A stretch of DNA of 64,000 nucleotides from a virus (taxonomy: Duplodnaviria > Heunggongvirae > Uroviricota > Caudoviricetes), in the IMG/VR virus record IMGVR_UViG_2639762822_000001; one strand, 5' to 3'. This document shows, piece after piece, positions 1 through 58,716 of the stretch. How positions within the stretch are numbered: the first letter of the stretch is position 1; each line of letters opens with the position of its first letter. The position numbers and the translations under genes are program-made. Below the pieces are notes generated by a model. That model did not search any database and was not told the origin of the DNA. It saw only the letters and a list, made by a program, of their open reading frames with translations.

Positions 1-32
1 AATAGATAAGTACCTACCTATCAATCCGGAGC

Positions 33-602
33 TTATAAAATTCCTGAAAGAACGTCTCGAACCTGTCGGAATTGGTCTGTCTGCATACCGGTGTAAATCG
101 ACGCCACGGCATCTGCAAGGTGCTCGTTTTTACCCACCAGCACTTCTTTGCCAGATTGTTTCCGTCGAAGCCACGGGGCATTTGGTTGCTTCTGCGTAGC
201 CCATTGTATGATTTCTTCTTTCGATGTAGTCAGCTTGTTTCCGACATAATGCTTGATCTCATTTGGTGTAACCTGAATGAGCGGCTTATCTACGCACGCG
301 AGCACGCCAATGCAGACACCATATGAGGTCTGAGCACGACTCGATTGACTGCCAACCGGCAACTCGCAAAAGACCATGTGTGCCTGCTCAATAATGGGCT
401 TGGCTGTACGCCATATTTCATTGGCGCGGCGAAGATCGTCGCTGTTCACACGGACTGTTTTTTTATTGCCACCGGCTTTGGTTTCTACCAGCGTTAGTCC
501 GGTAATATAAAGATTACCCGTCTCCAGATCCAGCGTACCAATCGCCAGGCCAAAGTTGCTCATTGAAGGGTCTACACCGACCACCCGAATAGTTTTACTC
601 AT
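33..602 (-). CDS. RuvC-like Holliday junction resolvase (phage-type)
   Basis: N-terminal VVGVDPSMSNFGLAIG resembles the RuvC/YqgF first catalytic Asp motif; C-terminal HLADAVASIY resembles the RuvC HAxDA motif; sits within the recombination gene block. Confidence 0.5.
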   Translation of the reverse strand: MSKTIRVVGVDPSMSNFGLAIGTLDLETGNLYITGLTLVETKAGGNKKTVRVNSDDLRRANEIWRTAKPIIEQAHMVFCELPVGSQSSRAQTSYGVCIGVLACVDKPLIQVTPNEIKHYVGNKLTTSKEEIIQWATQKQPNAPWLRRKQSGKEVLVGKNEHLADAVASIYTGMQTDQFRQVRDVLSGIL

Positions 603-612
603 TTTGGTCTCC

Positions 613-1386
613 TTACCACGAAGCCCAGATAGGGCACTCCATTAATTTCTGCTCAAGGGTCTTCTCCACCGCACGAGTCGCCGAAGATGCGTGTGACTTG
701 TCCACAACGTTAACGATGTCATTAGTGAAAGAACCTGTCGCAGTGTCTGCGCTGATCATGCTCTGCCCGATGAAGCAGCTCAGGATGTCGATCAACCGCC
801 GCGCTTTTCGTCTATCAGCATAAAACACATGCGGGAGAGCGACTTCGATCCTCGCTACACCGCCATCCTCACCTACAAAGCACAGTTTTGCTCGCTCATG
901 AGCAGGTCCCTCTGGATTGTACTCTATGTGGAAGTTGACAAACGCAACGCCCGGCATCGTAACGTGGCCGGCGCTCTCGTTAGCTTTGCGAATCAGATTG
1001 GTGAAAGCGATGCCGAGGTGCGACTCCATCGCGTCGAAAAGCGCACTTTCGTTGATGTTCAACTCACCAGTTTCAGGGATCGTTACAAAACCCGGCCCAG
1101 AATATGGAAGATAACCGCCTTCCGCGAATGGGTTGATCAGGATTGGCGCGGTGCTTCCTGACGGCAGAGCGTCCAGGTTTGGCATCGTCGGAGTCGCGGC
1201 CAAAAGGTTTGTCAGAACCGAAAACTGGTCAGTGAGAACATTGCCGTTGTACCAGGCAAGCCTCGGAGCTGCACCAACTGACGTATGACTATTGATCAGC
1301 CTGATGGACTGCATAACTGCAAACATCTGCAAAAACTGTGTGCGGCTCAAATTAAACGACATAGCTGCGGCCCTCTTTGACTTCAA
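613..1386 (-). CDS. hypothetical protein
   Basis: 257-aa ORF, no recognisable motif; overlaps the sbcC 3' end by about 35 nt. Confidence 0.4.
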   Translation of the reverse strand: MKSKRAAAMSFNLSRTQFLQMFAVMQSIRLINSHTSVGAAPRLAWYNGNVLTDQFSVLTNLLAATPTMPNLDALPSGSTAPILINPFAEGGYLPYSGPGFVTIPETGELNINESALFDAMESHLGIAFTNLIRKANESAGHVTMPGVAFVNFHIEYNPEGPAHERAKLCFVGEDGGVARIEVALPHVFYADRRKARRLIDILSCFIGQSMISADTATGSFTNDIVNVVDKSHASSATRAVEKTLEQKLMECPIWASW

Positions 1387-4583: not shown

Positions 4584-4807
4584 GTGTCTTTCCTTTGTGG
4601 TTATTTTGATACAGATGTTAAGCGTGTTTTAGAGGTGAACAACCCAGACAACACGGTACATAAGAAAATTTACAGGCACATGATTATGACAAATACATAA
4701 GTAAGTAAATACCTATTTTAGGGCGGCAAAGATTTCTAAATGTTACAAGCCACTCTATAATCGCACTCACTCAATGATGACAACCAAACGAAAAAGGAGA
4801 ACGGACG

Positions 4808-5311
4808 GTGAAAGGCGTAATTATAGGGACGATGGCCATTGCTCTGATCGGATGCGTGCCAAAACCGCCTCAAGATGAAAAGTCAGCTGGCGGATACGTC
4901 GATATTTATTCCACTTCAAGCGTAGCAATTGCCCAGGACAGAGCCGACAAATTGTGTGGAAGCCATGCCTATTATGTCTCCAACGACAATGATTTAACCA
5001 AAGTCATGGGTAGACACGCGCCTTCATTCCCAAAAATCCGTTTCAACTGTGATCTTGAAATGGCCGCTTATCTCGGCAGCAAAGAGGCAAAGGAGATCAA
5101 AATGAAGCGCATAGAGGAAGCCTACAAGGAGATGTACAAGGCCCAATATGAGCTGAAAGAAGTGCGCCGTAAGAACGCTGATCCGAAGAAGCTGGAGTCC
5201 TACACAGAACGCGATCCGGACGGCACTATTCGCAGCTACAGCTTCTTGAACGGCAAGTCGTGCGAATCCATCGTATACCCAGACGGCACTGGCAAAACAA
5301 CTTGCGATTAA
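4808..5311 (+). CDS. putative lipoprotein
   Basis: GTG start with AAGGAGA ribosome-binding site; signal peptide with lipobox LIGC; one of the few plus-strand genes. Confidence 0.5.
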   Translation: MKGVIIGTMAIALIGCVPKPPQDEKSAGGYVDIYSTSSVAIAQDRADKLCGSHAYYVSNDNDLTKVMGRHAPSFPKIRFNCDLEMAAYLGSKEAKEIKMKRIEEAYKEMYKAQYELKEVRRKNADPKKLESYTERDPDGTIRSYSFLNGKSCESIVYPDGTGKTTCD

Positions 5312-9132: not shown

Positions 9133-9467
9133 TAACCAACCTCCTTGCAGTCATCGAAAAGATAGCTCGCGTCTTTTACGTGAACGCCATAAAAATCACC
9201 GGACTTGTTATAAATAAATTTATCCTCGCCGGTACCAGAATATTTCCCATCACGTTTGATCAGGGTTGGGGAAGACAAGACACGATCATCACGAACGACA
9301 TAAAACTGATCCCCACTGTCGACGACCATTGCCCCGTATGACGCCCTCATAACGTTTGAGATGCTGCCATTTTTTGTTTCTGCTACAGACATTGCACATT
9401 CATAGACGCGTGTCTCAGCGCAAACAGGCTGTATCAGCAATAATATTGCCAGGCCAATCTTCTTCAC
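9132..9467 (-). CDS. secreted/periplasmic hypothetical protein
   Basis: GTG start; N-terminal signal peptide MKKIGLAILLLIQPVCA. Confidence 0.45.
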   Translation of the reverse strand: MKKIGLAILLLIQPVCAETRVYECAMSVAETKNGSISNVMRASYGAMVVDSGDQFYVVRDDRVLSSPTLIKRDGKYSGTGEDKFIYNKSGDFYGVHVKDASYLFDDCKEVG

Positions 9468-9643
9468 GCTGCCACTCCTTGAAAAACGTCAAATGCCGAA
9501 TTGAACACGAGTACTATGGCGAGCGCGTTGACCATTGTGCCGTTTACGGGCGCCAGCGCTTTTCGGATCGCCCCTGTAAAGAGACAGTCGAGAACAAACG
9601 CTATCGAGATAATAAGTAATAAGGTGTCTAATATGTTAATCAT
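9464..9643 (-). CDS. small hydrophobic membrane protein (59 aa)
   Basis: ATG at 9643; two predicted TM helices; stop overlaps the GTG start of the next gene as GTGA; below the 60-aa cutoff of the ORF track. Confidence 0.35.
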   Translation of the reverse strand: MINILDTLLLIISIAFVLDCLFTGAIRKALAPVNGTMVNALAIVLVFNSAFDVFQGVAA

Positions 9644-9683
9644 GATAGGTAGATACTAACTTATATATTTTAGGCTGTAAATA

Positions 9684-9959
9684 TCACTCGTAAGTGCTTA
9701 TCCCCAAGATACGCTGAAGATGCTCGGCGTCCTCTTCGCTGATCGGGCGCGTTTCATCTACATACCAGCAACACCCGTTGTGCCAGCAAACACCATCTTC
9801 ATCAACAAATACCGAGTCTGCGTCATGGCCTGTGTATTCAACCAGAATGCGCTGTATTGCCGTCTGAACCTCTTCCTCGTTCAGCCCGTCGCAACGCACC
9901 ATAAACAGGGGGTATACGTCATAATCATTTCTGGCTGAGATGCGAACCAAAATTTTCAT
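9684..9959 (-). CDS. hypothetical protein
   Basis: 91-aa ORF flanked by palindromic promoter-like motifs. Confidence 0.4.
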   Translation of the reverse strand: MKILVRISARNDYDVYPLFMVRCDGLNEEEVQTAIQRILVEYTGHDADSVFVDEDGVCWHNGCCWYVDETRPISEEDAEHLQRILGISTYE

Positions 9960-10026
9960 GTGTTTTTCCTTATTGGTAAGTACTTATTCATTTTATTGTG
10001 TGCCAGAAGGCACACAATAAGCGTGT

Positions 10027-11486: not shown

Positions 11487-12317
11487 TTATTTGACTGTTA
11501 TGAAGGGGGTGTTTGCTCCTTGTGTCATGTATTGGGGCAGCTGGCCATTCCATTTGTTGATTGCCTCAAGCTCCATGACATTAGGGTTCTGGCGTAGCGC
11601 TTCACCACGTAATTTAATCGCATCAGCTTCTGCTTGAGCGCGTTTGCGGATAGCATCAGCTTCCCCTTCCGCTTGTTCACGTAACATGTTCGCTTCTGCT
11701 TTACGTTGCTCCACTTCCTGCTGACGCTGGAGTGTTTTCTGGTTCGCGGTTACTTTGGCATTGATGGACTCAATGACCGTGTCCGGATAGTCTGGTTTAC
11801 CTACCCATGACAGGCTTAAGACCTCTATGCCGACCGGGGTCATTTCTTTTTGAATATCTTTCAGCGCATTGTCGAGCAGGGCAGCTTTTCCACCGTCGAT
11901 GAAGGCGTCTGTCGTCATGCGGCTGGCCAGACGATTTAAAGAGTCTGCAATTTTCTGGCGTAGATCCGTATCTGTAATATCATCCACACCCTTACGGTAA
12001 GTCTGGAAAACGGTGGTGACCTTGTCTCGGTTGACCAGATAAGCCACACCGATTTTGTGACCGATCGCCGTACCGTCACTCATCTGAAAAGTGAAGGGTT
12101 CATCGTAAGTCTTCATTTGCTTAAAGGTCGGAAACACGTAGAGTTCGGTATTGATACCTGTCCACTGACGACCGACCCCAACAACTTCCCCGATGCCTTT
12201 GTCTTCGCCTAATTTGTTGACCTTAATTCCAACGTAACCAGGCTCTACACGATCACAACCACTCAGACCCATCGTGCAAATGGCCGCAAGCACTACCGCC
12301 AATAAACCTTTCTTCAT
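11487..12317 (-). CDS. SPFH/band-7 (prohibitin/HflKC-like) domain lipoprotein
   Basis: Signal peptide with lipobox LSGC; SPFH-like core followed by a coiled-coil QRQQEVEQRKAEANMLREQAEGEADAIRKRA. Confidence 0.55.
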   Translation of the reverse strand: MKKGLLAVVLAAICTMGLSGCDRVEPGYVGIKVNKLGEDKGIGEVVGVGRQWTGINTELYVFPTFKQMKTYDEPFTFQMSDGTAIGHKIGVAYLVNRDKVTTVFQTYRKGVDDITDTDLRQKIADSLNRLASRMTTDAFIDGGKAALLDNALKDIQKEMTPVGIEVLSLSWVGKPDYPDTVIESINAKVTANQKTLQRQQEVEQRKAEANMLREQAEGEADAIRKRAQAEADAIKLRGEALRQNPNVMELEAINKWNGQLPQYMTQGANTPFITVK

Positions 12318-12520
12318 TACTTATTCTCCTTAGAATTTTTTAGTGAGTTGATATAGCGGCGTCCTACGATGAAGCCGATAACAGGGAAGCCAAACGCTGT
12401 GGAAAAGCCGATCAGTAAAGCTAAATCGCTTTTGGCCGACACAAGCGACGGAACCAGTAATCCGTAAACAATAGAGACTGAAACGACAGTCAAAACTGCC
12501 ATGAGATAACCTTTGATCAT
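12317..12520 (-). CDS. small two-TM membrane protein (SPFH partner, NfeD/YqiJ-like role possible)
   Basis: 67-aa hydrophobic ORF directly upstream of the SPFH gene; start preceded by GAAAGGAAACACATG. Confidence 0.4.
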   Translation of the reverse strand: MIKGYLMAVLTVVSVSIVYGLLVPSLVSAKSDLALLIGFSTAFGFPVIGFIVGRRYINSLKNSKENK

Positions 12521-12549: not shown

Positions 12550-12578
12550 ATGATAAGTAAGTACTTATATATTTTCAA
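12550..12578 (-). promoter_or_regulatory. sigma70-like promoter whose 17-bp spacer is the palindromic motif
   Basis: On the minus strand: TTGAAA, then ATATATAAGTACTTACT (17 bp), then TATCAT; lies between an upstream terminator and the 12520 start codon. Confidence 0.45.
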
Positions 12579-12579: not shown

Positions 12580-12612
12580 TAACAAAAAAGGCGCCCATTG
12601 GACGCCTTGTTC
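12580..12612 (-). terminator. putative terminator downstream of the recombinase gene
   Basis: AAGGCGCC-CATTG-GACGCCTT imperfect hairpin with a flanking A-run. Confidence 0.4.
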
Positions 12613-14959: not shown

Positions 14960-15982
14960 TTACAGAGCGTCCAGTTCAGCCAGCAGGTCATCGAGACCTT
15001 CGTCAGCTGGTGCAGTCGCGGCGGCTGCGGATGCGCTTGCAGCTGCGGCAGCTTCTGGTGCTTTCGCTTCTTCTGGCTTCGTTTCTGGTTTGAACTCAGC
15101 TTCTGCGGCACGCAAGATCTCTTCGTCAACCAGGCTGCTGGTTTCCGTAGCAGGAGTGTGCGCTGTCGCAACCGCAGCGGCGCCTTCTGTATGACCAGTG
15201 ATAGTGCCAAAGCCTGGCAGTTCAGCAGCAGCGGATTTCGCCGTAGAGGAAATAGCTGGCGTGGACATGGTGGCGGCCGGCGCAGCGATACCAATCAGAC
15301 GACCCATAGTGCGAGCGGTGGAAAGCAGGCGAGTCTCATCAGCCTGGTTCGCGTAAGCGATCAGGTCGTGCTGGGTAGTCCAGAGCTTCTCAGCAATATC
15401 GCCTTTGTAGACTTTACGCTTCGGTGAGACGTCGTATTTGGTGTCACGACCTGAGCCGGTACGCTTAATCAGGAATGCATAGCCTTCTTCCTTGCTAAGC
15501 GGATTGCCGATGTCATCAGCGATGTCTTCAGACATCACCTTACAGATGTCGTCGAAAACAGTGGACGGCAGTTCAATCAGCTGGCATTTCTCAGCATCGC
15601 CAAAGTCTTCACGAGCAGACAGTACGCCGTTGACCAGATAACGCGGGGTAGCACGCATAGAGTTGATGCGCTCTTCCATTGGCTTGTGGCCTTTGTGACG
15701 AGCACGACCTTCCATCACCATCTCGCACAGCTGGCAGGCGCGACCGTGAGTGTGTTGCTCACAGACATAAGCAGTGGTTACTTCTTTGCCTTCCTCATTC
15801 TGATGCTTGACGTAGTGCATACCGAAAGTTTGGAAAAACACACCATTCGGATCGTCCTTGTTAGGGAAAATTCGAAGATAGTTATTGCCGTCTTTCAGAC
15901 GAGTCAGATCAACGTTATTGCCGCGCTTTGAGGCAATATCACCACGGGTCTTGTTCAGCAGATCGAGTAATGACTTAGACAT
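14960..15982 (-). CDS. gp32-like single-stranded DNA-binding protein
   Basis: Start at the internal ATG (15982) with CCAAGGAGAAACACATG; LKDGNNYLRIFPNKDDP resembles T4 gp32 LDNAGNGQAVIRFLPSKND; zinc ligand pattern CEQHTHGRACQLC; Ala/Glu-rich acidic C-terminal tail ending DDLLAELDAL. Confidence 0.7.
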   Translation of the reverse strand: MSKSLLDLLNKTRGDIASKRGNNVDLTRLKDGNNYLRIFPNKDDPNGVFFQTFGMHYVKHQNEEGKEVTTAYVCEQHTHGRACQLCEMVMEGRARHKGHKPMEERINSMRATPRYLVNGVLSAREDFGDAEKCQLIELPSTVFDDICKVMSEDIADDIGNPLSKEEGYAFLIKRTGSGRDTKYDVSPKRKVYKGDIAEKLWTTQHDLIAYANQADETRLLSTARTMGRLIGIAAPAATMSTPAISSTAKSAAAELPGFGTITGHTEGAAAVATAHTPATETSSLVDEEILRAAEAEFKPETKPEEAKAPEAAAAASASAAAATAPADEGLDDLLAELDAL

Positions 15983-16101
15983 GTGTTTCTCCTTGGTATG
16001 ATTGTGGCCATTGGCGCGGTGCGCTTTGGGCATTCGTTTGTTACTGGCTCCTGCGAGCGCATAGAATAATAGATCAGTACTTACTTATGATCTACTATAA
16101 A

Positions 16102-16533
16102 TTAACGGGTGGAGTGGAATCGTTCGGCACCCAATCGCTCTATCTCCACGATAGCCATTTTTGACGCCTGGACGATCATGTCACGACGATGGGAAAATGC
16201 AGAGACGGCGTGCTTGTACAGGTCTGCTATGTATCGGGCTTCATCTAATTTTTGCCGTTTGGCGAGGTATTGCGGATTCGTTTTAACCTTTGCGTCGAGC
16301 ACAGACTCATTGAACTTAATGCCGTTCATACTCAGATTCTTACGTTCGTTATCATAGATTTTTGCTTCTATTGCATCGAGGGAGAGTTTCGCATCAGCGA
16401 CTTCTCTTTCGGCCCAGGCAAGTTTGGAACCGTACTCCATCAGCAGACGAGGTTGTTGTCGCCAGACCTCCTCAAGATTGTCACGGTCAAACTCAAGATC
16501 GGTCATAATTTTATCGTAAATTGTGGTGTCCAT
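16102..16533 (-). CDS. hypothetical coiled-coil protein
   Basis: 143-aa ORF. Confidence 0.45.
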   Translation of the reverse strand: MDTTIYDKIMTDLEFDRDNLEEVWRQQPRLLMEYGSKLAWAEREVADAKLSLDAIEAKIYDNERKNLSMNGIKFNESVLDAKVKTNPQYLAKRQKLDEARYIADLYKHAVSAFSHRRDMIVQASKMAIVEIERLGAERFHSTR

Positions 16534-16598
16534 CCGTTAGGTGCTCGCTTATTTATCTATATCAATTATACAATCGATCATCATGCCTTCAAATCAAG

Positions 16599-16633
16599 AC
16601 CGTTACAAAAAACCCGCCAAGCGGCGGGTTTGT
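16599..16633. terminator. bidirectional rho-independent terminator
   Basis: AAAAAA-CCCGCC-AAGC-GGCGGG-TTTGTTTT. Confidence 0.55.
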
Positions 16634-16634
16634 T

Positions 16635-17078
16635 TTAAGCGACTCGCTTCCTGAAAATGTTCGAAAGCGTAACTCTGGTCTGACGTCGCAACCTGTATTT
16701 CCTCACATCGCCAATCTTATTCACTTCCATGAACTCTTTGGCCACCTTCAGTACCAGTCGATTGCGGAACACTTTGAACGCCTCCAGCTGTTCCTCTGGG
16801 TTATCCGATTCGTAGATCTCTAACAGATACTGGCACGCCTTCGGATCTTGCGTTTTGAGCGCCAGCGCTCTGGCACATTTACGCAAGCGACTGACTTTAT
16901 CGGCTCCATCCAGCCCTGCAAACGCCAGTGCCAGATCTAACGTGACCGGGCAGTCGATGATTTCCCAGAACTGCGAGCGCATGGTGGCCGCTACCGCTTT
17001 GTCTTGAAAGTCCGCTGGAATTGCCGCCAGCTCGTGTGCAATCTTCTGTGCCTCACTCATGTTGTTCTCTTTGCTCAT
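16635..17078 (-). CDS. hypothetical protein
   Basis: 147-aa ORF, ATGA-coupled to the dnaE stop. Confidence 0.45.
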   Translation of the reverse strand: MSKENNMSEAQKIAHELAAIPADFQDKAVAATMRSQFWEIIDCPVTLDLALAFAGLDGADKVSRLRKCARALALKTQDPKACQYLLEIYESDNPEEQLEAFKVFRNRLVLKVAKEFMEVNKIGDVRKYRLRRQTRVTLSNIFRKRVA

Positions 17079-22009: not shown

Positions 22010-22105
22010 GTGTTTTTCCTTACTCGTTTGTCGTTCGTGCGTATATCTTATAGAAATATATCAGGCTGTATAGTAAGTGGTTACTTAATTTTAAGGGTAA
22101 GCGAT

Positions 22106-24430
22106 TTACCCAAGAATGATACGAGATAGCTCAGTAACCACAGACGGGCCTAACTCCTCCACACTGTTAACAAGGGCGTAGTTTTTGTAATAGCGTTTCG
22201 GGGCATTGGTCAAAATTCCTATCGCCATGAGATCAATATCACTAAGGTGCTCAATCTCTTTGGCTACAGTGCGCAGGTGCTCGCTGAACCCATCGCCGGC
22301 AGCACATGGCGAACCGTCACTCATGACCAGCATGATTTTTTTGTCTTCTGTTCGCCCCGAAAAGAGTGATGCCAATTGCGCGATACTCTCCCCATCAACG
22401 TTGTTGAGTAACGGGAACGTTTCTCCGACGCAACCCATACGAGCGCGGATCTCTGGTGAGTTAGCTTTCTCGTTCCAGTTTTTGATGATAGGCAACATCA
22501 GGGCTTCAAAACGCGAAAAACCACGTTTAGACATTGTTCCATGATCAGGGGCGCCGAAAGTGGTAAAGCCGGTGATGATATTCGGTACGTTAATACGATC
22601 GAGTGCATCAGCGATTGTGTAGGCGCTGGCGAGTGCCAGATGAATCTTTCTGCCGCCCATTGAACCTGACAAATCGATTACCTGCTGCACACAGGCGTTA
22701 ACTGCCTTGTGATCTTCTTTCCGTCGAAATACGCGATCATCCTTCATTGCCAGACGATAAAGACTTGAGCCATGAACACGCCCTCGACGTTGGCCAGGGA
22801 CAAACTGGACACGATTACGACTGGCGATCGCCCGTTCCAAATCTTTGGCCAGGGTTGAAGACACTCCGGCTGAAAGGTGTTCTTCAACCCGCAATTCAAA
22901 AAGTTTTCGACCCTCTGGAACCATACGATAGCGATCAACAGGAGAGTGCATAGGGATTGCGCCAAAAACTTTTTTGGCCCGCTTGATATGCTCTTCCGCC
23001 TCGTCAATTGGACCGATGAAATCGTAAGAGCGGTCATACGGACGGTAATCAGAAAGAGAGCCGCTCATCAGCTCTTTGCTGATGGTTTCCGACAGCGCAT
23101 CCTCGGTCATTTCATCGGCACCGTCTTCTATTTCATCAAGCGCCTTCAGTGCATCTTCCAACGTCATTCCGTCTGTTTCTGCAACGAAGCCTGTGTCACC
23201 ATCAGGCGTCTCTTCTGTACCCTCGTCCTTTTCGCTCCCGTAGCTCTCTTCATCTTCTTCGCCGGGCACCCCATCGCTATCGCCAGCTCCACCATGTTCG
23301 GCAGTGTCATCTTCTCCTGACCCATAACCATCGGAATCATCGGCGTCATCTTGAATGCCGTCACCAGGGGCCGGAGACCCATCGCCCTCTGAGCCAGAAC
23401 CTTCTTCATTTGCAGAATCCGGTGGTGTGGTGCTGCCATCTTCGTCGGTATCTGGGTGTTCTCTGTGTTCTTCTTTACCTGTTTCTGAAGAATCATCACT
23501 TGTATCACTTATGTCTTTATCGTCAGTAGGTAAGTCCTTATCTAATGAACCGGGCGAATCAGAATCACCAGAATCGCGATCTTTGGCTTCTTCTTCTTTT
23601 TCCTCGCCTTCTTCTTTCCGCCCTGGTGTGGCTTCTTTATGGCTGGGGTTTTCTGGCGCTTCAGGTTTATCTCCAGACTCATCATCGCGCGTGGAGGGCT
23701 TCTTTGCAGAAGATTTCATTTCAGGAAGTTTACCTTCTGGTTTTTCCTTCATGTCTTTCATGATCTGCGCAATAGCCGCGGCTACTTTGACGCAGTCCTC
23801 AGTACTCGACATGTTGCGAACGGCAGAGTCGATACCGTGTTCTTTAAGCAGGGCGACGGGTTTTGAGATGTGATGCCAGTTATCTTCCATAAACTCGACG
23901 AAAGGGCTTTGGCCATCCCAGGCTCTGACTACAGGGCACAGGAAAAACTTCAGAAACAGATCTCGCTGATCCCCGCGACAGATAGATACTGCCTCGACTA
24001 CTTTGGTCTTAAAGTATTTGTCGATAATCAGGTTTTGGGTTGCCAGAAGGTTACGACGAGTCCCATTAAAAACCTGCCCCATCCTGCGTTCGATAAAGAC
24101 ATCTTCCAGGGCATTCCAGAGACCTGTAGATGGCGCTTTCCCTTTCTCGCGCATCTTCATGGCGACCGTCGGATCAGTAAAAAGGATATGGGCTACCTCA
24201 TGGTCTAGAAAGCCACGTACTGCGTTCATCAGCGTAGGTGTTGCATCATCAGGTATGGATGGTATGTTGACCAACACCGGCTCTCCACGCTTGTTGTAGC
24301 GTACAAATGCTTCATTACCACGCTCCGCTACAGGGATGCTTTTTCCGGAAAGCATGGCGACTACTCGTTTAACGCAATCGCGAAAGTCCTGTACCTCTTT
24401 CAGTACAGCTTTAGAAGATGCTTTAGACAT
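22106..24430 (-). CDS. cobT: CobT-like von Willebrand factor A domain protein with very large acidic low-complexity linker
   Basis: Start at the internal ATG (24430) with AAGGAAA ribosome-binding site; C-terminal vWA MIDAS DLSGSMGG; about 200 aa of D/E/S/G-rich sequence in the middle. Confidence 0.75.
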   Translation of the reverse strand: MSKASSKAVLKEVQDFRDCVKRVVAMLSGKSIPVAERGNEAFVRYNKRGEPVLVNIPSIPDDATPTLMNAVRGFLDHEVAHILFTDPTVAMKMREKGKAPSTGLWNALEDVFIERRMGQVFNGTRRNLLATQNLIIDKYFKTKVVEAVSICRGDQRDLFLKFFLCPVVRAWDGQSPFVEFMEDNWHHISKPVALLKEHGIDSAVRNMSSTEDCVKVAAAIAQIMKDMKEKPEGKLPEMKSSAKKPSTRDDESGDKPEAPENPSHKEATPGRKEEGEEKEEEAKDRDSGDSDSPGSLDKDLPTDDKDISDTSDDSSETGKEEHREHPDTDEDGSTTPPDSANEEGSGSEGDGSPAPGDGIQDDADDSDGYGSGEDDTAEHGGAGDSDGVPGEEDEESYGSEKDEGTEETPDGDTGFVAETDGMTLEDALKALDEIEDGADEMTEDALSETISKELMSGSLSDYRPYDRSYDFIGPIDEAEEHIKRAKKVFGAIPMHSPVDRYRMVPEGRKLFELRVEEHLSAGVSSTLAKDLERAIASRNRVQFVPGQRRGRVHGSSLYRLAMKDDRVFRRKEDHKAVNACVQQVIDLSGSMGGRKIHLALASAYTIADALDRINVPNIITGFTTFGAPDHGTMSKRGFSRFEALMLPIIKNWNEKANSPEIRARMGCVGETFPLLNNVDGESIAQLASLFSGRTEDKKIMLVMSDGSPCAAGDGFSEHLRTVAKEIEHLSDIDLMAIGILTNAPKRYYKNYALVNSVEELGPSVVTELSRIILG

Positions 24431-24545
24431 TAGAATTTCCTTGTTTTTAAAACAATTTGTTTTCTGATGTGTGAAATTTATCACTGTACGAACAGGCCGC
24501 TAAACTGTTCGTACAGGTCAACTTAGGGGGATCAGGGAAGGACGT

Positions 24546-24767
24546 TTAGTTCGTTCTGACTGCTAAGGAGCCGCAGCCGGTATTGATGAGTGTGAAGCGC
24601 TTATCACAAAGTTCGAAGGTAAAGGCGGTGGCGTCACCCATATCGAGGGAAATCTGTTTTGCTGGAAGGTCGGCTAGGATTGCTGCCACCTTTTCCTCGT
24701 GCAAAGAGAAAATATGGCCAACTTCAAGTTCGTTCAAATTACAGGCTATTTTTTCCATTTCATTCAT
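24546..24767 (-). CDS. hypothetical protein
   Basis: 73-aa ORF. Confidence 0.35.
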   Translation of the reverse strand: MNEMEKIACNLNELEVGHIFSLHEEKVAAILADLPAKQISLDMGDATAFTFELCDKRFTLINTGCGSLAVRTN

Positions 24768-25019
24768 CCAACTACATGGTTTCTAAACGTTTCTGAATAC
24801 TACTACCTATTGTATCAATAAGGAATATTTTCATATCAGATGTTTCTGCTTGCCATGTAATGAAAATGCCAGTCATTACACGCTTAAGTGTTGCCCTGCC
24901 TGGGATTAAGGAGCATAATGTGCCGCCAACAAATGGTAGATAAGTCTTTACAACCCTGGCCTTTGATGTAATATCAGTAAGCACTTACCAGAGATAAATA
25001 AAACACGCAGGGTATAAAC

Positions 25020-25400
25020 ATGGCTACCAACGAAGCTAAACAAGGTCGCTACGCCGCCTATATCGACTCTCTAATCACAATTTCCCCTAAAAGTCAGGCC
25101 ACTATCGCTAAGGAAATTGGGTATAAAAACCCTAACAATCTGTCACTTATCAAAAGTGGCAAAATTCCTTTGCCGGTGGACAAGGTTCGCCCGTTGGCCG
25201 TCTCTTTGGATGCTGACCCAGTACGCCTCATGCTCATGGTTCTCGAAGAGCGTCACCCGGAGCTTCTTGAGTTCTTCCGAGATGAAGGCACGGCTCCGCT
25301 TTCTCAAGACGAAAAACAGGTACTGGATGCTTTTCGCAAGCGTTTCGATGGTCAACAAGGTGCTTCAGAACAGGTCGTCGAGGCCATCAAGTCAATGTGA
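25020..25400 (+). CDS. helix-turn-helix (XRE/Cro-C1-like) transcriptional regulator
   Basis: QATIAKEIGYKNPNNLSLIKSGK HTH-like segment; divergent from upstream genes and convergent with the recombinase gene. Confidence 0.5.
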   Translation: MATNEAKQGRYAAYIDSLITISPKSQATIAKEIGYKNPNNLSLIKSGKIPLPVDKVRPLAVSLDADPVRLMLMVLEERHPELLEFFRDEGTAPLSQDEKQVLDAFRKRFDGQQGASEQVVEAIKSM

Positions 25401-26498
25401 GAAATTTATACGAATAAGCTCTGTCGCTAGACGATCTCCCTTGAAATTATGGTCTATCTCGTCTAAATCTGGTTGTTCTACGATGGATGCGATGTGCGCC
25501 GAAAATTTACATAAGGCGTCTCGCATTTCATCCATATAGTCGTGACGGTCGTAAACTCGATCTATTCCCTCAAGGCTATGGTTCATGATTTTACGAGAGA
25601 CTTCCTGATTAATACCCAGGGCAGGGAAATAGCTACGCGCTGTTCTTCGCAGATCGCGAGGAGTGAAGACCTCAACCTCCATCAATTCCGGACGTTCCAA
25701 AATCCTCCGGAGCGCCTGTGATATGGCTACTTTTGACATTGGCATGTCCTTATCGCGTTTCTTATTTGAGGGCACCAGCCACTGGCTGTCTTTCCCATAT
25801 TTAAACAGTTCCTCGACGCACTTCCTCATCAGCGGGCTTAACGGTAGAGCATGTTGTCTGGCCGATTTATTACGTGTGCCTTGATTCCATACATCACGTT
25901 GAAGGTTGAACTCACTCTTCTTGGCCCGGAGCACTTCATCGGGTCGCCTGGCAGCAACGAGACATAGTCTGGCCGCCCACTTTGTCCCTTCGCATACGTT
26001 GAAATAATCCCAGACGTTCCAAAAAACCCAAACTTCGGCGTCCGTTAGCTTGCGTTCCCGGGGCGTAGGTTTGGCGCCACCTGCGACCTTGTTGAGTGAC
26101 ATATCGTTCAACGGCGACGTTTCGATGACCCCCTGGAAGGCGCACCAGCCCAGAAACTGCTTCATCAGGGAAAACACACGCCTGCCCATGACGATCTTCC
26201 CTTCCAGAATGAGCGGGTTCACCAGCTGGTTGACGAGCACCCTACTAATATCACTTACTTTTACATCAGAGATAAAAGGTAAAACATGTATCAAAACACA
26301 ATGGACGGCGATCTCCGGTCGGCGTCTTGTTATGAGTAAAGATAAGCGAGTGAATAACAAGAAGGCATCTGAAAACTTCATCTCGCCACTTACCAGAGAG
26401 GCTGCCATCGCATTCATTTGCGAAGCCCGTTCCAGAAACTCAATCGCTTCTCGTGAGGTGTTTTCGGCTGCGCGTGCTCGATCAAACGAATTTTTCAT
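25392..26498 (-). CDS. tyrosine recombinase (phage integrase family; integrase or multimer-resolution recombinase)
   Basis: C-terminal catalytic pattern FTPRDLRRTARS ... IMNHS ... VYDRHDY (R, H-x-x-R-like, His, Tyr nucleophile). Confidence 0.75.
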   Translation of the reverse strand: MKNSFDRARAAENTSREAIEFLERASQMNAMAASLVSGEMKFSDAFLLFTRLSLLITRRRPEIAVHCVLIHVLPFISDVKVSDISRVLVNQLVNPLILEGKIVMGRRVFSLMKQFLGWCAFQGVIETSPLNDMSLNKVAGGAKPTPRERKLTDAEVWVFWNVWDYFNVCEGTKWAARLCLVAARRPDEVLRAKKSEFNLQRDVWNQGTRNKSARQHALPLSPLMRKCVEELFKYGKDSQWLVPSNKKRDKDMPMSKVAISQALRRILERPELMEVEVFTPRDLRRTARSYFPALGINQEVSRKIMNHSLEGIDRVYDRHDYMDEMRDALCKFSAHIASIVEQPDLDEIDHNFKGDRLATELIRINFSH

Positions 26499-26524
26499 AG
26501 TCCAATCACTTAGTTAGCCGCAAT

Positions 26525-30078: not shown

Positions 30079-30118
30079 CGAAAAGACTATACATGAAAAA
30101 AAATAGGTAGGTCATTAC

Positions 30119-30913
30119 CTACCATGAGATGTTCTTGTCTACTTTGCCTCTTGGTTTTGCTTTCACGATTGTCCTCTTCAATGCTTCATAGGCGTACTTG
30201 CAACGATAGGGATCGGCCAAAACATGCAAAGGTACATTGTTAGATAGCTTTCTAAATTTAGCTGTTAGGTCAATGTAAAAGTCGAACTCAAATATAGAAA
30301 AAAAATAAAAATTAGGTCTTTTCGTCTCAACAGGGAAGAAAGTTCCATATCGTGGAAACCAAAACGAAGGCGCGATTTCAACCTTATAGCTCAGATCATT
30401 ATTTTCAGGATCGAGCAAAAAGACTCTCAACTCTTCTTTGGCTTCTTCGTTTATTTTAATTGGTATGCAACCGTTCCAAACATCAAAGGTAGCACGCCAT
30501 AAGATACTGATCGCTAGGTAGTAAATGCTATCAACATCTATGCTTGGCAAGAACCCTGATCCGATGGAAACGTTAGGTGCTATTCTGGGATCTAAACTAG
30601 CGTTATCCCAAAATGGGATGACCTTCTCTTTGGCTATTTTGAAGAATTTAGAAACATCAACGCGGTTTAGTGGCGGCAAGCACATGCGGGCATAGCTGTT
30701 TTCACCATACTTCGATAGTTTGCCTTCACAATCTTTGCATAACAAATAGCTTTTAACTTCTTTTGACAGGATATAGGTATTACCGTCTTTATCTGTCATG
30801 TTCAAATTTTTGCCTTCTGCGACCATATTACGCGCACGGCGATAAATTTGTTTTGGCAAGAAGTGACTGTCTTCTAATTTGTCAACTTCTTCTCTACACA
30901 TAGGGCAAAACAT
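30119..30913 (-). CDS. AT-rich orphan gene: zinc-ribbon protein of unknown function
   Basis: Start at the internal ATG 30913 with AGGAG ribosome-binding site; N-terminal CPMC...CKDC; local GC visibly lower than neighbouring genes; flanked by hairpins. Confidence 0.45.
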   Translation of the reverse strand: MFCPMCREEVDKLEDSHFLPKQIYRRARNMVAEGKNLNMTDKDGNTYILSKEVKSYLLCKDCEGKLSKYGENSYARMCLPPLNRVDVSKFFKIAKEKVIPFWDNASLDPRIAPNVSIGSGFLPSIDVDSIYYLAISILWRATFDVWNGCIPIKINEEAKEELRVFLLDPENNDLSYKVEIAPSFWFPRYGTFFPVETKRPNFYFFSIFEFDFYIDLTAKFRKLSNNVPLHVLADPYRCKYAYEALKRTIVKAKPRGKVDKNISW

Positions 30914-32255: not shown

Positions 32256-32257
32256 AT

Positions 32258-32332: not shown

Positions 32333-33051
32333 AATTTCGCAGCGGTACTGGCTTCAAAGATAAAGTTTTCCCGCAACTTGCACTTTACGTTAGTGCCAGA
32401 CGAGGCTTGCGGCTCGCTCAAATAGAGCGAAGATCTTAAACACTGCTCGGTGCTTCAGAGAGCGCCGGGGAGTCAGATCTTATTGGATGTATGGAATCAT
32501 CCGTGTTGTGGCAGCTACATGCTAAAACCAGAGGGTATTACTATTGCCACAACGTTGAGGCCACTAAACTAGTAATGTTTGCCCAACATCTTTGTCAGTC
32601 GCTACAGCCTCTGTGGATTCACCTGTATGATTGAAAGAAACAGTGGCCTCAACGTTGTGTGCTGGCTAACCAGGCCAGCCGGGTTACGTCGCCGATCTTC
32701 TTTAACCCAAGACAAAACGACATAAGTAATGGAAATGACGTAACAGGATGAACGGTCGATAACTGAAACCGGGATAGGTGAATGGAATGAGGAAACCAAC
32801 CGCCCATCCTGTTACTTCATCGGAGAGGGCATGGGTGGTGCCGTATCATGCCCTCTCCTGCGTTCTGCAATCACACTCGCTCAGTGTGTCCCATTTCGGT
32901 GACGAGGCTGGAAACTGACCTCGCTGGTGTTTGGCTTATTAGGCTACTGCCAGATACTGATTGTCGTTTGCGGTTATCTTTAAACGTTCAAACAGTCGCG
33001 TACTAACGAAAACAAAGCAATCTTATATATATCATAAAAATAAGTAAATAC

Positions 33052-33357
33052 TTATTTATCAGCTATGCGTTCAGTTGATAACTTTTTGATCAGAGTCCCC
33101 TTCGAAGAGGGGGTTCGTGAGACAGTGACGGTAAATCGCTTCCCCTGGATAGTAATACTCTCGTGCTCCTTCAGTTCCCCATAGCGGATTTCCAATAGGG
33201 CGCCAAGACGCCATAGTCCATCATCGATACGCTTTTTACTGGCAAACTTTATCATCAACCATTTCACAATAAATTGGCCTGTAGCGAATGCGCACGCAAC
33301 GCCAGCCGCCGTAAAGTAGGCGACCAGCCACCAGTCGAGTGAGGTCAGTTCCGTCAT
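33052..33357 (-). CDS. small membrane-anchored hypothetical protein
   Basis: N-terminal TM helix. Confidence 0.4.
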   Translation of the reverse strand: MTELTSLDWWLVAYFTAAGVACAFATGQFIVKWLMIKFASKKRIDDGLWRLGALLEIRYGELKEHESITIQGKRFTVTVSRTPSSKGTLIKKLSTERIADK

Positions 33358-35702: not shown

Positions 35703-35783
35703 ATAACAAACCGTAGCTTTGTACTTACTTAATAAAAGGATTCTAAACAAGCCCCATCAGGGGGCTAAGTGTTTAAGTAAGGC

Positions 35784-36578: not shown

Positions 36579-36761
36579 AAAGGTTCCTCAATTCCTTCGT
36601 TGCGCATATTCTTACAGAAAAATAAGTATGTATCTACTTATCAATATAGGCATTTAGTTTCGCTTATAAAAGATGCTCTTAATCCTATCCAGTTGTAGCT
36701 GTCAGGTCACTTCTATATGATTTCACTAAACTAATACGTTAAACACACAAGGCTTAGGTCT

Positions 36762-41222: not shown

Positions 41223-41415
41223 AGTAGGTAGTTACTTACTTATCAAAGTGAGCGAATCATAACGACTGGTGACAGCTTTTGGAAGTGGCAACTGGAGGGA
41301 ATGTGTCTGGGAAGTCGGCATAGGAACAGACCTGCTTCCGTATAAATAATAATAAGTAACTTAGTAGTTATATACAGAAGCAGGTTCTCAGTGCCCCCAG
41401 ATCATCTTAGAAGCT

Positions 41416-46321: not shown

Positions 46322-46657
46322 TTATTGCAGTCCATTTTTAACGCCGTAAGCGGCCAGCCCCAACAGCAGTACGGTAATCAGGAACGACGTAATCTTTGAG
46401 ACAATGCCGCCAAAAAACCCGCTGGAAATGGAGTCGAGCCGATTAAGAAGTTTGTCCAGATTTGAATGCTGGATGCTGTGTTGTGCCGGGGTCATATCGC
46501 CAAAGTAGGTCTTGAGCTGATCGTTAACTTCCTGACCAATCTCCTCGCGCAGTTCTTTGCCCAATTTGCCGACTACCTCGCGGGCGACAATCGCGGCAAT
46601 GCGCTCTACCTGCTCTGGCGTTACGCCTGCCATCTCGTTCGACATTATTTCCTCCAT
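46322..46657 (-). CDS. small protein with C-terminal TM helix (holin-like role possible)
   Basis: 111 aa; C-terminal ITSFLITVLLLGLAAYGV. Confidence 0.3.
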   Translation of the reverse strand: MEEIMSNEMAGVTPEQVERIAAIVAREVVGKLGKELREEIGQEVNDQLKTYFGDMTPAQHSIQHSNLDKLLNRLDSISSGFFGGIVSKITSFLITVLLLGLAAYGVKNGLQ

Positions 46658-46735
46658 GAAAAGTCAAATCGGGATGGCAGGTTTATAACACATTATCAAA
46701 TATTTTTATAGGTAAGCACTTACTTATTATCAAAT

Positions 46736-51792: not shown

Positions 51793-51855
51793 ATTCGCTC
51801 CTTGAAAGTGCGGGCATTCCCGCCCGCATAAGTAAGTACACACCTATCATTGTAA

Positions 51856-56560: not shown

Positions 56561-57151
56561 TTACATAAGCTGGTCGATAGTGATTGAAGAACTCACAACC
56601 TGCGAACCAACCAAAATTTCTTCTCCGTAGATGAGCTGCACCGGATTGCCCTGATTGGTGGTGTTCTGCGGCCCATCGAAATAAAACGAGTTGGAATTGT
56701 CTGCCTGCCGAACGCTATCATTCGTAGCCTGTGGGGAGATCAGCTGCGCCACCCCCCCCATCATCAGAGACAATCCCAACGGTGCGAGGGCGGGAACCCA
56801 GATTGAGGCAACTAACAGGACTGCGCCGACAACGGTCTGAAACCACCCAAATGCAGAGCCGCCGCTACCGCGAGGAACTGGCGTGATACGGATCTTCGCG
56901 ATATTTTCAGACTGACCCATCATCTGGTATTCACCTTCGTCGACAGACCATTTGTGGCCTTGTTTGTTGGTGATCTGGATGTGGTAACTGTCATATCTTT
57001 TAATGTTGCGCTTCATCCAGGCTTTAAATCCCGGTCGATTTGCGTCGATTAAATCCAGCGCCTGCTTTGTATTACGCACCTTTAAATGCCAGTGGCGGCC
57101 AAAGTGTTTGGCCATCGGGCCGCCAAGTTGAACATGAACTAACTCAGACAC
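56561..57151 (-). CDS. lambda gpI-like tail assembly protein
   Basis: Size, position and C-terminal hydrophobic/Gly-rich segment PRGSGGSAFGWFQTVVGAVLLVASIW. Confidence 0.7.
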   Translation of the reverse strand: MSELVHVQLGGPMAKHFGRHWHLKVRNTKQALDLIDANRPGFKAWMKRNIKRYDSYHIQITNKQGHKWSVDEGEYQMMGQSENIAKIRITPVPRGSGGSAFGWFQTVVGAVLLVASIWVPALAPLGLSLMMGGVAQLISPQATNDSVRQADNSNSFYFDGPQNTTNQGNPVQLIYGEEILVGSQVVSSSITIDQLM

Positions 57152-57936
57152 GTCTCATCTCCCTTGAGTAAGTCTCTATGACGCAGGTGATGCGTCGTAT
57201 GTTTCTGGTACATTCCTCCGTAATAAGCCCGGCAGCTAAGACGGTCGATTTGGTGATGGAGAATCATTCCCTCTCCGATATAGACCGCGCAGTGATCAGG
57301 CATCTTCCCGTACTGGATGAAGAAGATGTCTCCTGGCTGTGGTTCCGTCCCTGGGGCCAGGCGCACTAATCCTTCTTTGCGATAGTTCTGATCAAGAATG
57401 TCGTTGTCGCCCGTGTACCACGATGGAATGTGCAAATGGGCATTGGGGTTAAGGTCGACGCCGAACTTGCGCTTAAGGTAGTCGCGGCACAACATCCAGC
57501 AATCGAAAACGCCAAACACATACGGCCGGCCTACATAGGGCATTTCGAAGCCATCCGGGGTGATCACATTCATCTCGCTAAAGTGGAAAGAAGCATCCCC
57601 CTCAACATTCTTGCGAACAGCCAGAATCATCCACGGTACTTCCGTGGCTTCGCAGCCTGCACGATCGGCATCTGACGCTTCCGCAGACTCATCAGTATGT
57701 GAATGCCAGATAGCAATCACCTCGCCTGCATCTTCTGCGGCCATGATGTCGTCTACGTGCATAACGAAAGTGTTTTGCGGGTTTTCCGACACGTTCCGAG
57801 CTTCCATAAAGCGATATTTATCGCCATGAGTACGCACCAGAAAGCCACACGCTTCGTTAGGGTAGCGATTGATGGCGCAGAGATAGATTTGCTGCATAAC
57901 GTCCGAACCAAGCTCAGGGAGCGCTTTATTACCCAT
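57139..57936 (-). CDS. lambda gpK-like tail protein (MPN/JAMM plus NlpC/P60)
   Basis: JAMM motif HSHTDESAEASD (HxHx7Sx2D) and a downstream Cys-containing NlpC/P60-like segment. Confidence 0.8.
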   Translation of the reverse strand: MGNKALPELGSDVMQQIYLCAINRYPNEACGFLVRTHGDKYRFMEARNVSENPQNTFVMHVDDIMAAEDAGEVIAIWHSHTDESAEASDADRAGCEATEVPWMILAVRKNVEGDASFHFSEMNVITPDGFEMPYVGRPYVFGVFDCWMLCRDYLKRKFGVDLNPNAHLHIPSWYTGDNDILDQNYRKEGLVRLAPGTEPQPGDIFFIQYGKMPDHCAVYIGEGMILHHQIDRLSCRAYYGGMYQKHTTHHLRHRDLLKGDETCLS

Positions 57937-58660
57937 AACGCGTTGCTCCTATAAACCCGCCAAAATGGATAACGCCATTGGCGAAGAAATTTCGACGAGC
58001 GTTGCATGAGTCGTAGCGTTTCGTGCAGTAATCCGCGCCTGACATCGTGGTTTGCTGGTTGTTCTTGTCGAAGTACGGACCGGTGTAGCCGCATTCGGGG
58101 CCACGGTACTTCCACGGACAGGTATTTTTGATAATCTGGCGATACGGCAGCTGCACGCCCATTAGATCGAACACACTGGACAACTCGAACTCGACAACCT
58201 CATGTGTTTCGAGAGTTTTTTGTTCGATAAACCACATTTCATCCGGGAAATGCTGGTTTGGATCGGCGGTGGGATTGCCGTCTTTGAAGTTGGCCGCATC
58301 GAGGAAACGGGCCAGCGTCATCTTGCGAATTACACGGCAACCAACCAGATCATCATTGGCCTGGACTTCAGCCGAGACGGTTCCTGCAAAGTTGGAAACC
58401 TGAATTTTTGGACGCGGCAAAGTACCCTGACCAGTCTTATCAAAGCCTGATGCTTTGATTGGCCACGGTTCATAGGTCACCCCCTGCCAAACGACTGACT
58501 CCATCAGTTCGTTCGTGCCGGCGTGAAAATACAGCTTGCCCCCAGAAGTAGTGTTCGACATATCCAGCTCGAACAGCTCAATGAGCGCGGAGGGTGACAA
58601 GCTTTGAATATCAGCTTTAATACCCATTGTTTCATCCTTGAAATTAACAGGCGCCAACAT
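57929..58660 (-). CDS. lambda gpL-like minor tail protein
   Basis: Conserved C-terminal NTCPWKYRGPECGYTGP motif and overall collinearity with gpL. Confidence 0.85.
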   Translation of the reverse strand: MLAPVNFKDETMGIKADIQSLSPSALIELFELDMSNTTSGGKLYFHAGTNELMESVVWQGVTYEPWPIKASGFDKTGQGTLPRPKIQVSNFAGTVSAEVQANDDLVGCRVIRKMTLARFLDAANFKDGNPTADPNQHFPDEMWFIEQKTLETHEVVEFELSSVFDLMGVQLPYRQIIKNTCPWKYRGPECGYTGPYFDKNNQQTTMSGADYCTKRYDSCNARRNFFANGVIHFGGFIGATRYG

Positions 58661-58716
58661 CCTGTCAGCGCCTACAAATAATAGTAAATAAGCACTTACC
58701 TATCCAGTAGGATAAA

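Follow-up and report, generated by a model that had tools for sequence, protein, structure and literature searches.

Dispersed copies of a 20-bp palindrome upstream of lytic operons in SSU5/pHCM2-type phage-plasmids: a predicted operator family and a candidate XRE-type repressor

The viral DNA stretch IMGVR_UViG_2639762822_000001 (64,000 nt, called the window here) carries many scattered copies of a 20-bp palindrome, ATAAGTAAGTACTTACTTAT and variants, which raises the question of what these copies do and which molecule recognizes them. They were found at about 16 (15–17) loci in the window and about 24 per genome in relatives. We conclude that the palindrome is a real and conserved feature, predicted to be a protein-binding site in front of lytic operons. 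The explanation we favor, and consider moderately probable, is that the palindromes form the dispersed operator regulon of a lysogeny repressor, the binder being a dimer of the helix-turn-helix (HTH) protein encoded at 25020-25400.

By its sequence the window is an SSU5/pHCM2-type phage-plasmid with almost all genes on the minus strand. It is 86.7% identical to Salmonella phage SSU5 over 8 kb and 94.7% identical to 108-kb Enterobacter ludwigii plasmids over 20 kb, and 796 plasmids in PLSDB match it; the closest complete relative is E. ludwigii plasmid NZ_CP134668 (108,092 bp). When SSU5 proteins were mapped, the window proved to be the inverted counterpart of the SSU5 segment between about 10.6 and 67.8 kb. 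Genes for SbcCD, RepA, recombination, DnaE, CobT/CobS-like proteins, ligase, primase, helicase, ParA, lysis and tail proteins are present. The same mapping showed that an 8.6-kb segment (24485-33055) is missing in phage SSU5; this segment contains the HTH gene, an integrase gene, tRNA-Ser (31785-31871), tRNA-Asn (32258-32332) and several accessory open reading frames (ORFs). An equivalent variable segment occurs in the phage-plasmid Cyrano (OV696614) and the E. ludwigii plasmid, where it additionally carries toxin-antitoxin, glutaredoxin and PhoH-like genes. The motif was compared in SSU5, Cyrano and NZ_CP134668. For the conservation footprint we used four close relatives from a related-loci search with the RecA-like protein (Yersinia pestis L006; Kluyvera L004 and L007; Buttiauxella L005).

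Seven matches to ATAAGTAAGTACTTACTTAT with at most 3 mismatches were detected in the window, against 0.00 in 100 dinucleotide shuffles. Allowing up to 6 mismatches gave 25 overlapping matches at ∼18 loci (1.1 in shuffles), and a weight matrix run on one strand gave 15 window loci with a score of at least 9 (0.8 in shuffles). SSU5, Cyrano and NZ_CP134668 each contain about 24 sites, compared to 0.2–0.85 in shuffles. The multi-copy family described in the initial annotation is thus real, and all 15 loci listed there hold the motif or its core; 9645-9664 and the in-ORF copy 23526-23545 were absent from that list. Twelve window loci are strong (score 20–32), and 22069-22088, 24973-24992 (core only), 30103-30122 and 35713-35732 (left half only) are weak or partial. 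The consensus is a perfect 20-bp palindrome in which T2, A3, G5, T6, A7 and their mirror positions are kept best. In 47 orthologous comparisons, which included Y. pestis pMT1, Kluyvera and Buttiauxella, the motif columns were 93.6% identical vs. ∼80% in the 30-bp flanks.

The sites are nearly confined to intergenic DNA. Between 1 and 70 kb of SSU5, 16 of the 18 sites are intergenic, while intergenic DNA makes up 8.8% of the sequence (P = 1.6e-15). The earlier statement that all copies lie outside coding sequence therefore holds except for copy 23526-23545, which is inside the CobT-like gene 22106-24484. The description "mostly 20–60 bp upstream of start codons" is approximate, the distances being 0, 12, 13, 33, 37, 47, 57, 60, 65, 85 and 114 nt. 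Several window sites come after hairpins or terminators, e.g., the terminator at 12588-12608. Operons with a site in front include those for packaging, head, tail, lysis, replication, recombination and nucleotide metabolism. No site with a score of at least 14 was found in SSU5 beyond 84.2 kb, in the small-gene/maintenance part. Sites precede nearly all lytic operons, so that a role as main switch of the element, as proposed from the window at the outset, is plausible. In the literature open to our search we found no description of the motif or its regulon, nor of lysis-lysogeny control in SSU5/pHCM2, although an earlier description is possible.

Is the palindrome recognized in DNA or in RNA? 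At all ten arm pairs in the three genomes, the arm-to-arm Watson-Crick counts were equal to the independent-column expectation, and G:T was about as frequent as A:C. The arms do not covary and therefore resemble two half-sites that decay independently of each other, as would be the case with a symmetric dimer bound to duplex DNA, which supports the original suggestion of a dyad operator for a dimeric regulator. The alternative is that AUAAGUAA-GUAC-UUACUUAU hairpins form in polycistronic transcripts and serve in processing or translational control, for example for an FljA-like PF03614 protein. Several sites at 0–13 nt from start codons, a full-length FljA homolog in relatives, and a base change in Acinetobacter that preserves complementarity (see below) would agree with hairpins. 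The pairing counts contradict them, as do sites in non-transcribed or divergent promoter regions, including the one upstream of the HTH gene on the opposite strand, and a flank asymmetry in Acinetobacter that fits a −10 box. The RNA hairpin, an idea that came from the FljA homolog, was rejected on the lack of compensatory arm changes and of G:U bias, and we rate any RNA-level explanation as very improbable.

FljA is the phase-1 flagellin repressor and acts on the fliC mRNA leader. The full-length homolog in relatives of the window (PF03614, E 1e-80) has a weak Hfq-like stretch and is encoded in an operon with a UvsW-like helicase; the loci, all outside the window, are L002:46897-47343 (SSU5_121), L010:780-1301 (CYRAN_114) and L068:25799-26326. 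In Cyrano (position 105107) and the E. ludwigii plasmid, a palindrome site is located in the divergent region between the FljA-homolog operon and parB. The homolog could be a lysogenic-conversion gene acting on host flagellin.

We also considered whether the sites belong to the host or to no regulator at all, i.e., targets of a host transcription factor, or selfish repeats similar to repetitive extragenic palindromic (REP) sequences or miniature inverted-repeat transposable elements (MITEs) with no regulatory role. The change of motif class with host genus (Acinetobacter vs. Enterobacteriaceae) would be in line with this. A 30-nt near-consensus query of 5,426 complete E. coli genomes gave 944 places, all on ∼100–115 kb plasmids of 252 genomes, and 0 near-consensus copies on the chromosomes of this set; a host regulon is therefore unlikely. 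REP and MITE families are recognized by chromosomal copies and mobile, non-orthologous placement, but here the chromosomal count was 0, placement was orthologous across relatives, and the sites are conserved above their flanks. An exact search of IMG/VR with the 16-bp core returned 56 stretches, mostly single matches on unrelated-looking contigs; single-copy occurrence was departed from in two cases, L018, where a pair of copies is separated by 55 bp, and a 103-kb contig accounting for three of the stretches. A variant operator in another Enterobacter plasmid that encodes a divergent HTH protein also speaks against a host factor or selfish repeat, and we give this explanation a negligible chance.

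The question then becomes which element-encoded protein binds. The HTH protein, which had been named as a candidate at the outset, is the best one found, as the core palindrome lies at its own promoter in four enterobacterial lineages. Its Cyrano homolog, CYRAN_45 (68% identity), is expressed in lysogens and was treated as the master repressor (PMC9928086); Cyrano is induced by ciprofloxacin (PMC9928086). The window protein matches PHROG 8 ("transcriptional regulator") at E 3.6e-9, and NCBI annotates its homologs as XRE family. The top Foldseek hits were C.AhdI, C.BclI, SinR and 434 Cro (E 0.03–0.2, target template-modeling (TM) score 0.7–0.78), obtained with a medium-confidence model having a predicted local distance difference test (pLDDT) value of 70.7; the predicted N-terminal domain is also like that of a Salmonella phage repressor. 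By tblastn the HTH gene was detected in 1,001 plasmids, nearly always beside an integrase gene. Its counts by genus follow those of the tail region (HTH/tail: Klebsiella 348/307, Escherichia 230/241, Enterobacter 92/91, Yersinia 63/61, Salmonella 49/49), and it was also found in 154 Acinetobacter plasmids. Neither the HTH gene nor the divergent 73-aa gene next to it is present in phage SSU5. The 73-aa product is 54% identical to CYRAN_46 and to E. ludwigii RS00135. ORF 24772-24984 was considered as a Cro-like gene and rejected as probably spurious; it starts within the palindrome and has no homolog.

The HTH gene has a promoter of its own. Among the window, Cyrano, the E. ludwigii plasmid and Klebsiella NZ_CP027045, its spacer and the DNA ahead of it have diverged, but the −35, the −10 and the core (A/G)GTAAG(C/T)ACTTACC are kept. 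The core at this promoter is a putative autoregulatory operator. In a divergent Klebsiella plasmid (HTH protein 46% identical), a pair of sites immediately precedes the HTH gene, and TAAAAT comes after each of them. Sites occur at the HTH gene in six lineages, i.e., in every lineage examined.

Divergent lineages offered a comparison of operator and HTH protein. Acinetobacter baumannii plasmid NZ_CP027122 has the gene order of SSU5 and an HTH protein 45% identical to that of the window, and carries about 30 dispersed copies of an altered palindrome, ATCAGTCAGTACTGACTGAT. Compared to the enterobacterial consensus, A is replaced by C at positions 3 and 7, with mirrored T to G changes at 18 and 14. 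The 600 bp preceding the Acinetobacter HTH gene hold three sites of this type, against an expectation of ∼0.03. The predicted recognition helix reads RPNVLSMIKSG in Acinetobacter vs. NPNNLSLIKSG in the window. A second variant palindrome, ATAGGTAGGTAnCTACCTAT, was found in an Enterobacter plasmid; the HTH protein encoded there shares 48% identity with that of the window.

We examined the promoter elements around the sites. Three −35/17-bp/−10 arrangements on the minus strand had been reported and all are correct: 12578-12550 (also obtained by promoter scan) and those around the palindromes 46708-46727 and 58684-58703. A −35 element (at least 4/6 vs. TTGACA, 17-bp spacing) is present at just 2–3 of 22–23 sites per genome; in the window it is found at 12550-12578, 46702-46733 and 58684-58703. 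The enterobacterial palindrome ends in TAT, position 23 is T in 67% of sites, and TAnnnT at motif positions 18–23 occurs at 12–13 of ∼23 sites per genome. The mirrored hexamer is equally frequent (13 vs. 15 in SSU5), and the register of the promoter-like hexamer varies from site to site. In Acinetobacter, TAnnnT starting at motif positions 17–19 is gene-proximal at 15/29 sites vs. 1/29 for the mirrored form. The half-site end GAT does not allow a −10 in this lineage, and the gene-proximal half-site is degenerate at its three outer bases; ACTGACTATACT was counted five times in forward orientation and never in reverse. Sites 9645, 9972 and 41224 are 0–13 nt from a start codon and would therefore act in another register or as a roadblock. 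The proposal of a single promoter class with a palindromic spacer thus has partial support: the Acinetobacter orientation bias points to an embedded −10, but −35 boxes are rare and the register varies. We conclude that many sites are probable promoter-operator cassettes and that their geometry is not uniform.

The scarcity of −35 elements brings in a further explanation, in which the palindrome is an element of activator-dependent middle or late lytic promoters, where an early phage protein recruits RNA polymerase to a −10 alone, like P1 Lpa. The common fixed-register −10-like hexamer, orientation-specific in Acinetobacter, agrees with this, as does the presence of sites before all lytic gene classes and their absence from the small early-like gene region; lytically growing SSU5 also retains the sites with no HTH gene. 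P1 has 11 Lpa-type late promoters, which use a 9-bp inverted repeat (PMC10695390), and the LPhot box AAGTTACTT resembles the core AAGTACTT. However, tblastn searches of SSU5, Cyrano and the E. ludwigii plasmid for an Lpa homolog were negative (best E 0.29–0.59). The register is not constant, and the palindrome at the HTH promoter comes after the −10, a position typical of a repressor. Three sites are 0–13 nt from start codons. From general promoter knowledge, a dimer on a 20-bp site over −29 to −10 would clash with sigma-70/DNA contacts, and TTGAAA-17-TATCAT and TTGATA-17-TATAAA should be active with no activator. We regard activator-dependent promoters as unlikely. In the P1 record, the annotated −22 box of LPhot (L070:2522-2530) is one base longer than the motif core; this resemblance was treated as coincidence, there being no Lpa homolog.

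A number of points weigh against the HTH protein as repressor. It has no Pfam match at E ≤ 0.01 and no significant match in a PDB sequence search, and its structure model is of medium confidence. The site at the enterobacterial HTH promoter is the inner 14 bp alone, with a score of ∼10, and SSU5 keeps about 23 good sites with no HTH gene. Most sites lack a recognizable −35, a trait that fits activator-dependent promoters better than strong promoters under repression, and the symmetric enterobacterial −10-like hexamer may belong to the operator and not to a promoter. The co-variation of operator and HTH protein rests on essentially two operator classes, and host genus changes along with the HTH protein.

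The state of SSU5 would be explained if this phage is a recently virulent derivative, or equally if a different, conserved protein binds the sites. In the latter case the sites would be operators for another element-encoded protein (a Cro-like lytic regulator or other small protein), and the HTH gene would be merely one of its targets. The full site set of SSU5, which lacks both the HTH gene and the divergent 73-aa gene, the many conserved small window proteins of unknown function, and the weakness of the HTH-promoter site relative to the lytic sites are consistent with such a protein. On the other hand, a PHROG scan of nine conserved small window proteins assigned all of them to unknown function and gave no other DNA-binding candidate. 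The clustering of sites at the HTH gene in six lineages is a classic signature of an autoregulated repressor, and the Cyrano homolog is expressed in lysogens (PMC9928086). We regard a different binder, too, as unlikely.

We infer that the HTH protein is the binder, and that it acts by repression rather than activation. The proposed mechanism, induction included, would run as follows. In the plasmid-prophage state, the HTH protein would be made from its own TTTACA-16-TAATAT promoter, which the core palindrome at ∼+1 would limit by negative autoregulation. The HTH dimer would occupy ∼24 dispersed operators in front of replication, recombination, nucleotide-metabolism, lysis and virion operons. 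Many of these operators would cover the spacer and the first bases of the −10, so that RNA polymerase is excluded; a site that abuts a start codon may instead act as a roadblock or overlap a promoter set in a different register. Once the repressor is lost or inactivated, all lytic units would be released together. An S24 domain is missing from the HTH protein, and DNA-damage induction would therefore presumably proceed via an antirepressor or another route.

The predicted regulon shares its logic with known systems. In P1, also a plasmid prophage, C1 controls many lytic units, each under one operator copy that overlaps a sigma-70 promoter, and operators also lie at the repressor gene itself; in the annotated P1 record they are marked at pmgT, lpa, c1 and coi. 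The P1 operator is 17 bp and asymmetric and C1 has 283 aa, whereas here the site is a 20-bp palindrome and the protein a 126-aa XRE-type HTH; for C1, tblastn against SSU5, Cyrano and the E. ludwigii plasmid gave no homolog (best E 0.46). P1 late genes use the activator Lpa, whereas here one motif precedes replication and virion genes alike. The Lpa late promoters, which have a −10, an upstream inverted repeat and no −35 and stand before late operons, are similar to many of the sites here, where the hexamer is −10-like. They differ in that the P1 repeat is 9 bp with its center 14 bp upstream of the hexamer at LPhot (7.5 bp here), and in that the HTH-promoter site here is downstream of the −10.

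L5 stoperators are 13-bp, asymmetric, orientation-dependent and monomer-bound. The sites in the window resemble the stoperators of mycobacteriophages L5 and Bxb1 in that ∼20–30 copies of a short site are placed in intergenic spaces of lytic operons, but they are palindromic with independent half-sites and many overlap promoter-like elements. Stoperators silence the prophage, including at non-promoter sites (PMC9283540). The lambdoid/434 CI-Cro proteins and the restriction-modification C-proteins share the predicted fold class of the HTH protein and have a dyad operator and autoregulation at their own promoter. Their operators are few and clustered at one or two promoters, in contrast to ∼24 over 85 kb here, with a protein that has no S24 cleavage domain. 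SPbeta MrpR/YopR and IncP KorA/KorB are also cases of one element-encoded regulator with a repeated site across a large mobile element (PMC10516654, PMC2665229); their protein families and operators are unrelated, and KorB, which is of the ParB type, can exert its effect at a distance. In sequence and site architecture the window agrees with none of P1 C1, P1 Lpa and the stoperators, and therefore appears to hold a separate new system of the same general logic. The logic is known from P1 C1 and the stoperators and the protein class from CI/Cro and the C-proteins; the motif and its regulon seem to be new.

A stronger form of the repressor explanation is tentative and, in our judgment, rather doubtful: a single small XRE protein with no cleavage domain would directly gate every lytic unit of a ∼108-kb phage-plasmid from ∼24 operators embedded in promoters, and a separate late activator would be absent. 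Operator and promoter would then evolve together as a single cassette. The outer TAT of the enterobacterial half-site would also serve as the start of the −10, and in the Acinetobacter form the incompatible GAT end would have been given up for TATACT. If this is true, HTH/operator alleles would define immunity groups across ∼1,000 clinically relevant plasmids, among them those of Y. pestis (pMT1-type), Salmonella, Klebsiella and Acinetobacter, the Acinetobacter plasmid examined here carrying resistance genes. SSU5/pHCM2/pMT1-type phage-plasmids are widespread, with ∼800–1,000 plasmids in PLSDB from Klebsiella, Escherichia, Enterobacter, Yersinia, Salmonella and Acinetobacter. Because the operator is defined and both a candidate repressor and a regulon of ∼24 units are proposed, the switch is directly testable and immunity groups would be predictable from sequence. 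Such a switch would explain the lytic-phage behavior of an SSU5-like isolate that lacks the module. The promoter-operator cassettes would be compact genetic parts, and the system would be another instance of dispersed-operator silencing of a large extrachromosomal prophage, with components unrelated to those of P1 and the mycobacteriophages.

The individual sites and the HTH module are listed in Table 1.

Table 1. Predicted sites and HTH-module features of the window, with weight-matrix scores and counterparts in relatives (E. ludwigii, plasmid NZ_CP134668; numbers after a relative's name are positions in it).
Feature	Position	Strand	Score	Context	Counterparts
Predicted operator, ATAGGTAGGTACTTATCTAT	2..21	-	27.9	Downstream of RNaseH/RuvC-like gene 33-602, upstream of nrdA (beyond the window)	SSU5 67775, Cyrano 67883, E. 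ludwigii 3052
Predicted operator	4697..4716	-	28.5	Divergent region, SbcD-like gene (start 4583, minus) / ORF 4808-5311 (plus); 114 nt to minus-strand start codon	SSU5, E. ludwigii, L004, L005, L007
Predicted operator	9645..9664	-	25.3	Abuts start codon (TATC-ATG) of small ORF 9467-9643; overlaps promoter-like match TTTACA-17-TAGTAT at 9681-9653	
Predicted operator	9972..9991	-	20.8	12 nt upstream of ORF 9684-9959 start, directly after hairpin	
Predicted promoter-operator cassette, TTGAAA-17-TATCAT	12550..12578	-	27.7	Palindrome 12553-12572; 10/12 promoter match; behind intrinsic terminator 12588-12608, ahead of ORF 12317-12520	SSU5, Cyrano, Y. pestis (L006), Kluyvera (L004, L007), Buttiauxella (L005)
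Predicted operator	16069..16088	-	27.8	Upstream of gp32-like single-stranded DNA-binding protein (SSB) gene 14960-16033	Orthologous alignments span site in 7 relatives
Weak site	22069..22088	-		6 mismatches; upstream of CobS-like AAA ATPase gene 20774-22009, after hairpin	SSU5 45124 (score 14.7), E. ludwigii (score 12.8)
In-ORF copy	23526..23545	-	14.4	Within acidic region of CobT-like gene 22106-24484	SSU5 43661, E. ludwigii 86707
Small conserved gene, 73 aa	24546..24767	-		Divergent from HTH gene; first of CobT-CobS-DnaE lytic-direction operon	
Predicted HTH promoter	24947..24990	+		−35 TTTACA 24947-24952, −10 TAATAT 24969-24974 (16-bp spacer), core AGTAAGCACTTACC 24976-24989 at ∼+1	
XRE-type HTH protein, 126 aa, candidate lysogeny repressor	25020..25400	+			
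Site-specific integrase gene	25392..26498	-		Adjoins HTH gene and shares its conserved module	At or next to HTH match in most relatives listed
Variant site, GTAGGTAATGACCTACCTAT (GGTAGGTAATGACCTACC), then T7	30103..30122 (30103-30130 with T-run)	-	17.0		E. ludwigii 80758 (score 17.3)
Predicted operator	33040..33059	-	28.9	End of ORF 33055-33357, upstream of tRNA-Asn/tRNA-Ser region	
Half-site only (TTAAGTAAGTAC...)	35713..35732	-	10.6	Upstream of ORF 35238-35702, after hairpin	
Predicted operator	36622..36641	-	25.6	Divergent region, ORF 35784-36578 (minus) / ORF 36762-37832 (plus)	SSU5 38178, E. ludwigii
Predicted operator	41224..41243	-	26.1	13 nt upstream of ORF 40485-41210 start	SSU5, Cyrano, E. 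ludwigii, Klebsiella
Predicted promoter-operator cassette, TTGATA-17-TATAAA	46702..46733	-	31.6 (top in window)	Palindrome 46708-46727; upstream of holin-endolysin-spanin genes (holin 46322-46657)	
Predicted operator	51828..51847	-	24.5	Between tail-protein and tail-fibre genes, then GC-rich hairpin	
Predicted operator, TGGATA-17-TATTAT	58684..58703	-	27.2	Between minor-tail genes (M-like, L-like); hairpin downstream	SSU5, Cyrano, E. ludwigii

Some of the sites call for comment. Site 9972..9991 is unworkable as a promoter with the −10 at its downstream end because it is too near the ATG; a TTGTGT-16-TAAAAT promoter overlapping its upstream end is possible. For the same reason site 41224..41243 is unable to be the promoter of ORF 40485-41210. 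The in-ORF copy 23526..23545 could be an internal operator or promoter, or could be conserved merely as coding sequence. The variant site 30103..30122, the sole site with a T-run behind it, could double as an intrinsic terminator besides being a degenerate operator.

A long inverted repeat, ACCTGCTTCTGTATAT...ATACGGAAGCAGGT, is present at 41330-41385 on the minus strand; its loop is AT-rich and similar to the motif, and it folds with an energy of −31 kcal/mol (z = −5.3). Elements of this kind are also found in SSU5 (33473, 78319) and Cyrano (31175, 78099, and 108357, which is the record end by the small terminase gene). The repeat could be a bidirectional terminator or another cis site.

Other observations concern the relatives. 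In the Acinetobacter plasmid NZ_CP027122, a 179-aa protein annotated as RNA chaperone Hfq is encoded just upstream of a DnaB-like helicase gene (L071:675-1214), and IS26-flanked msr(E), mph(E) and aph(3')-Ia are inserted in the nrd region. In the closest relative, the counterpart of window DnaE 17075-20593 (L067:15299-18445) also contains a separate gene annotated as an HNH endonuclease (15299-16033), and the annotated dnaE is much shorter (16082-18445); the DnaE ORF of the window is intact (1,172 aa). The RecA gene of Cyrano is about twice as long as that of the window. Both the HNH/dnaE arrangement and the long Cyrano RecA gene could reflect homing or intein-type insertions.

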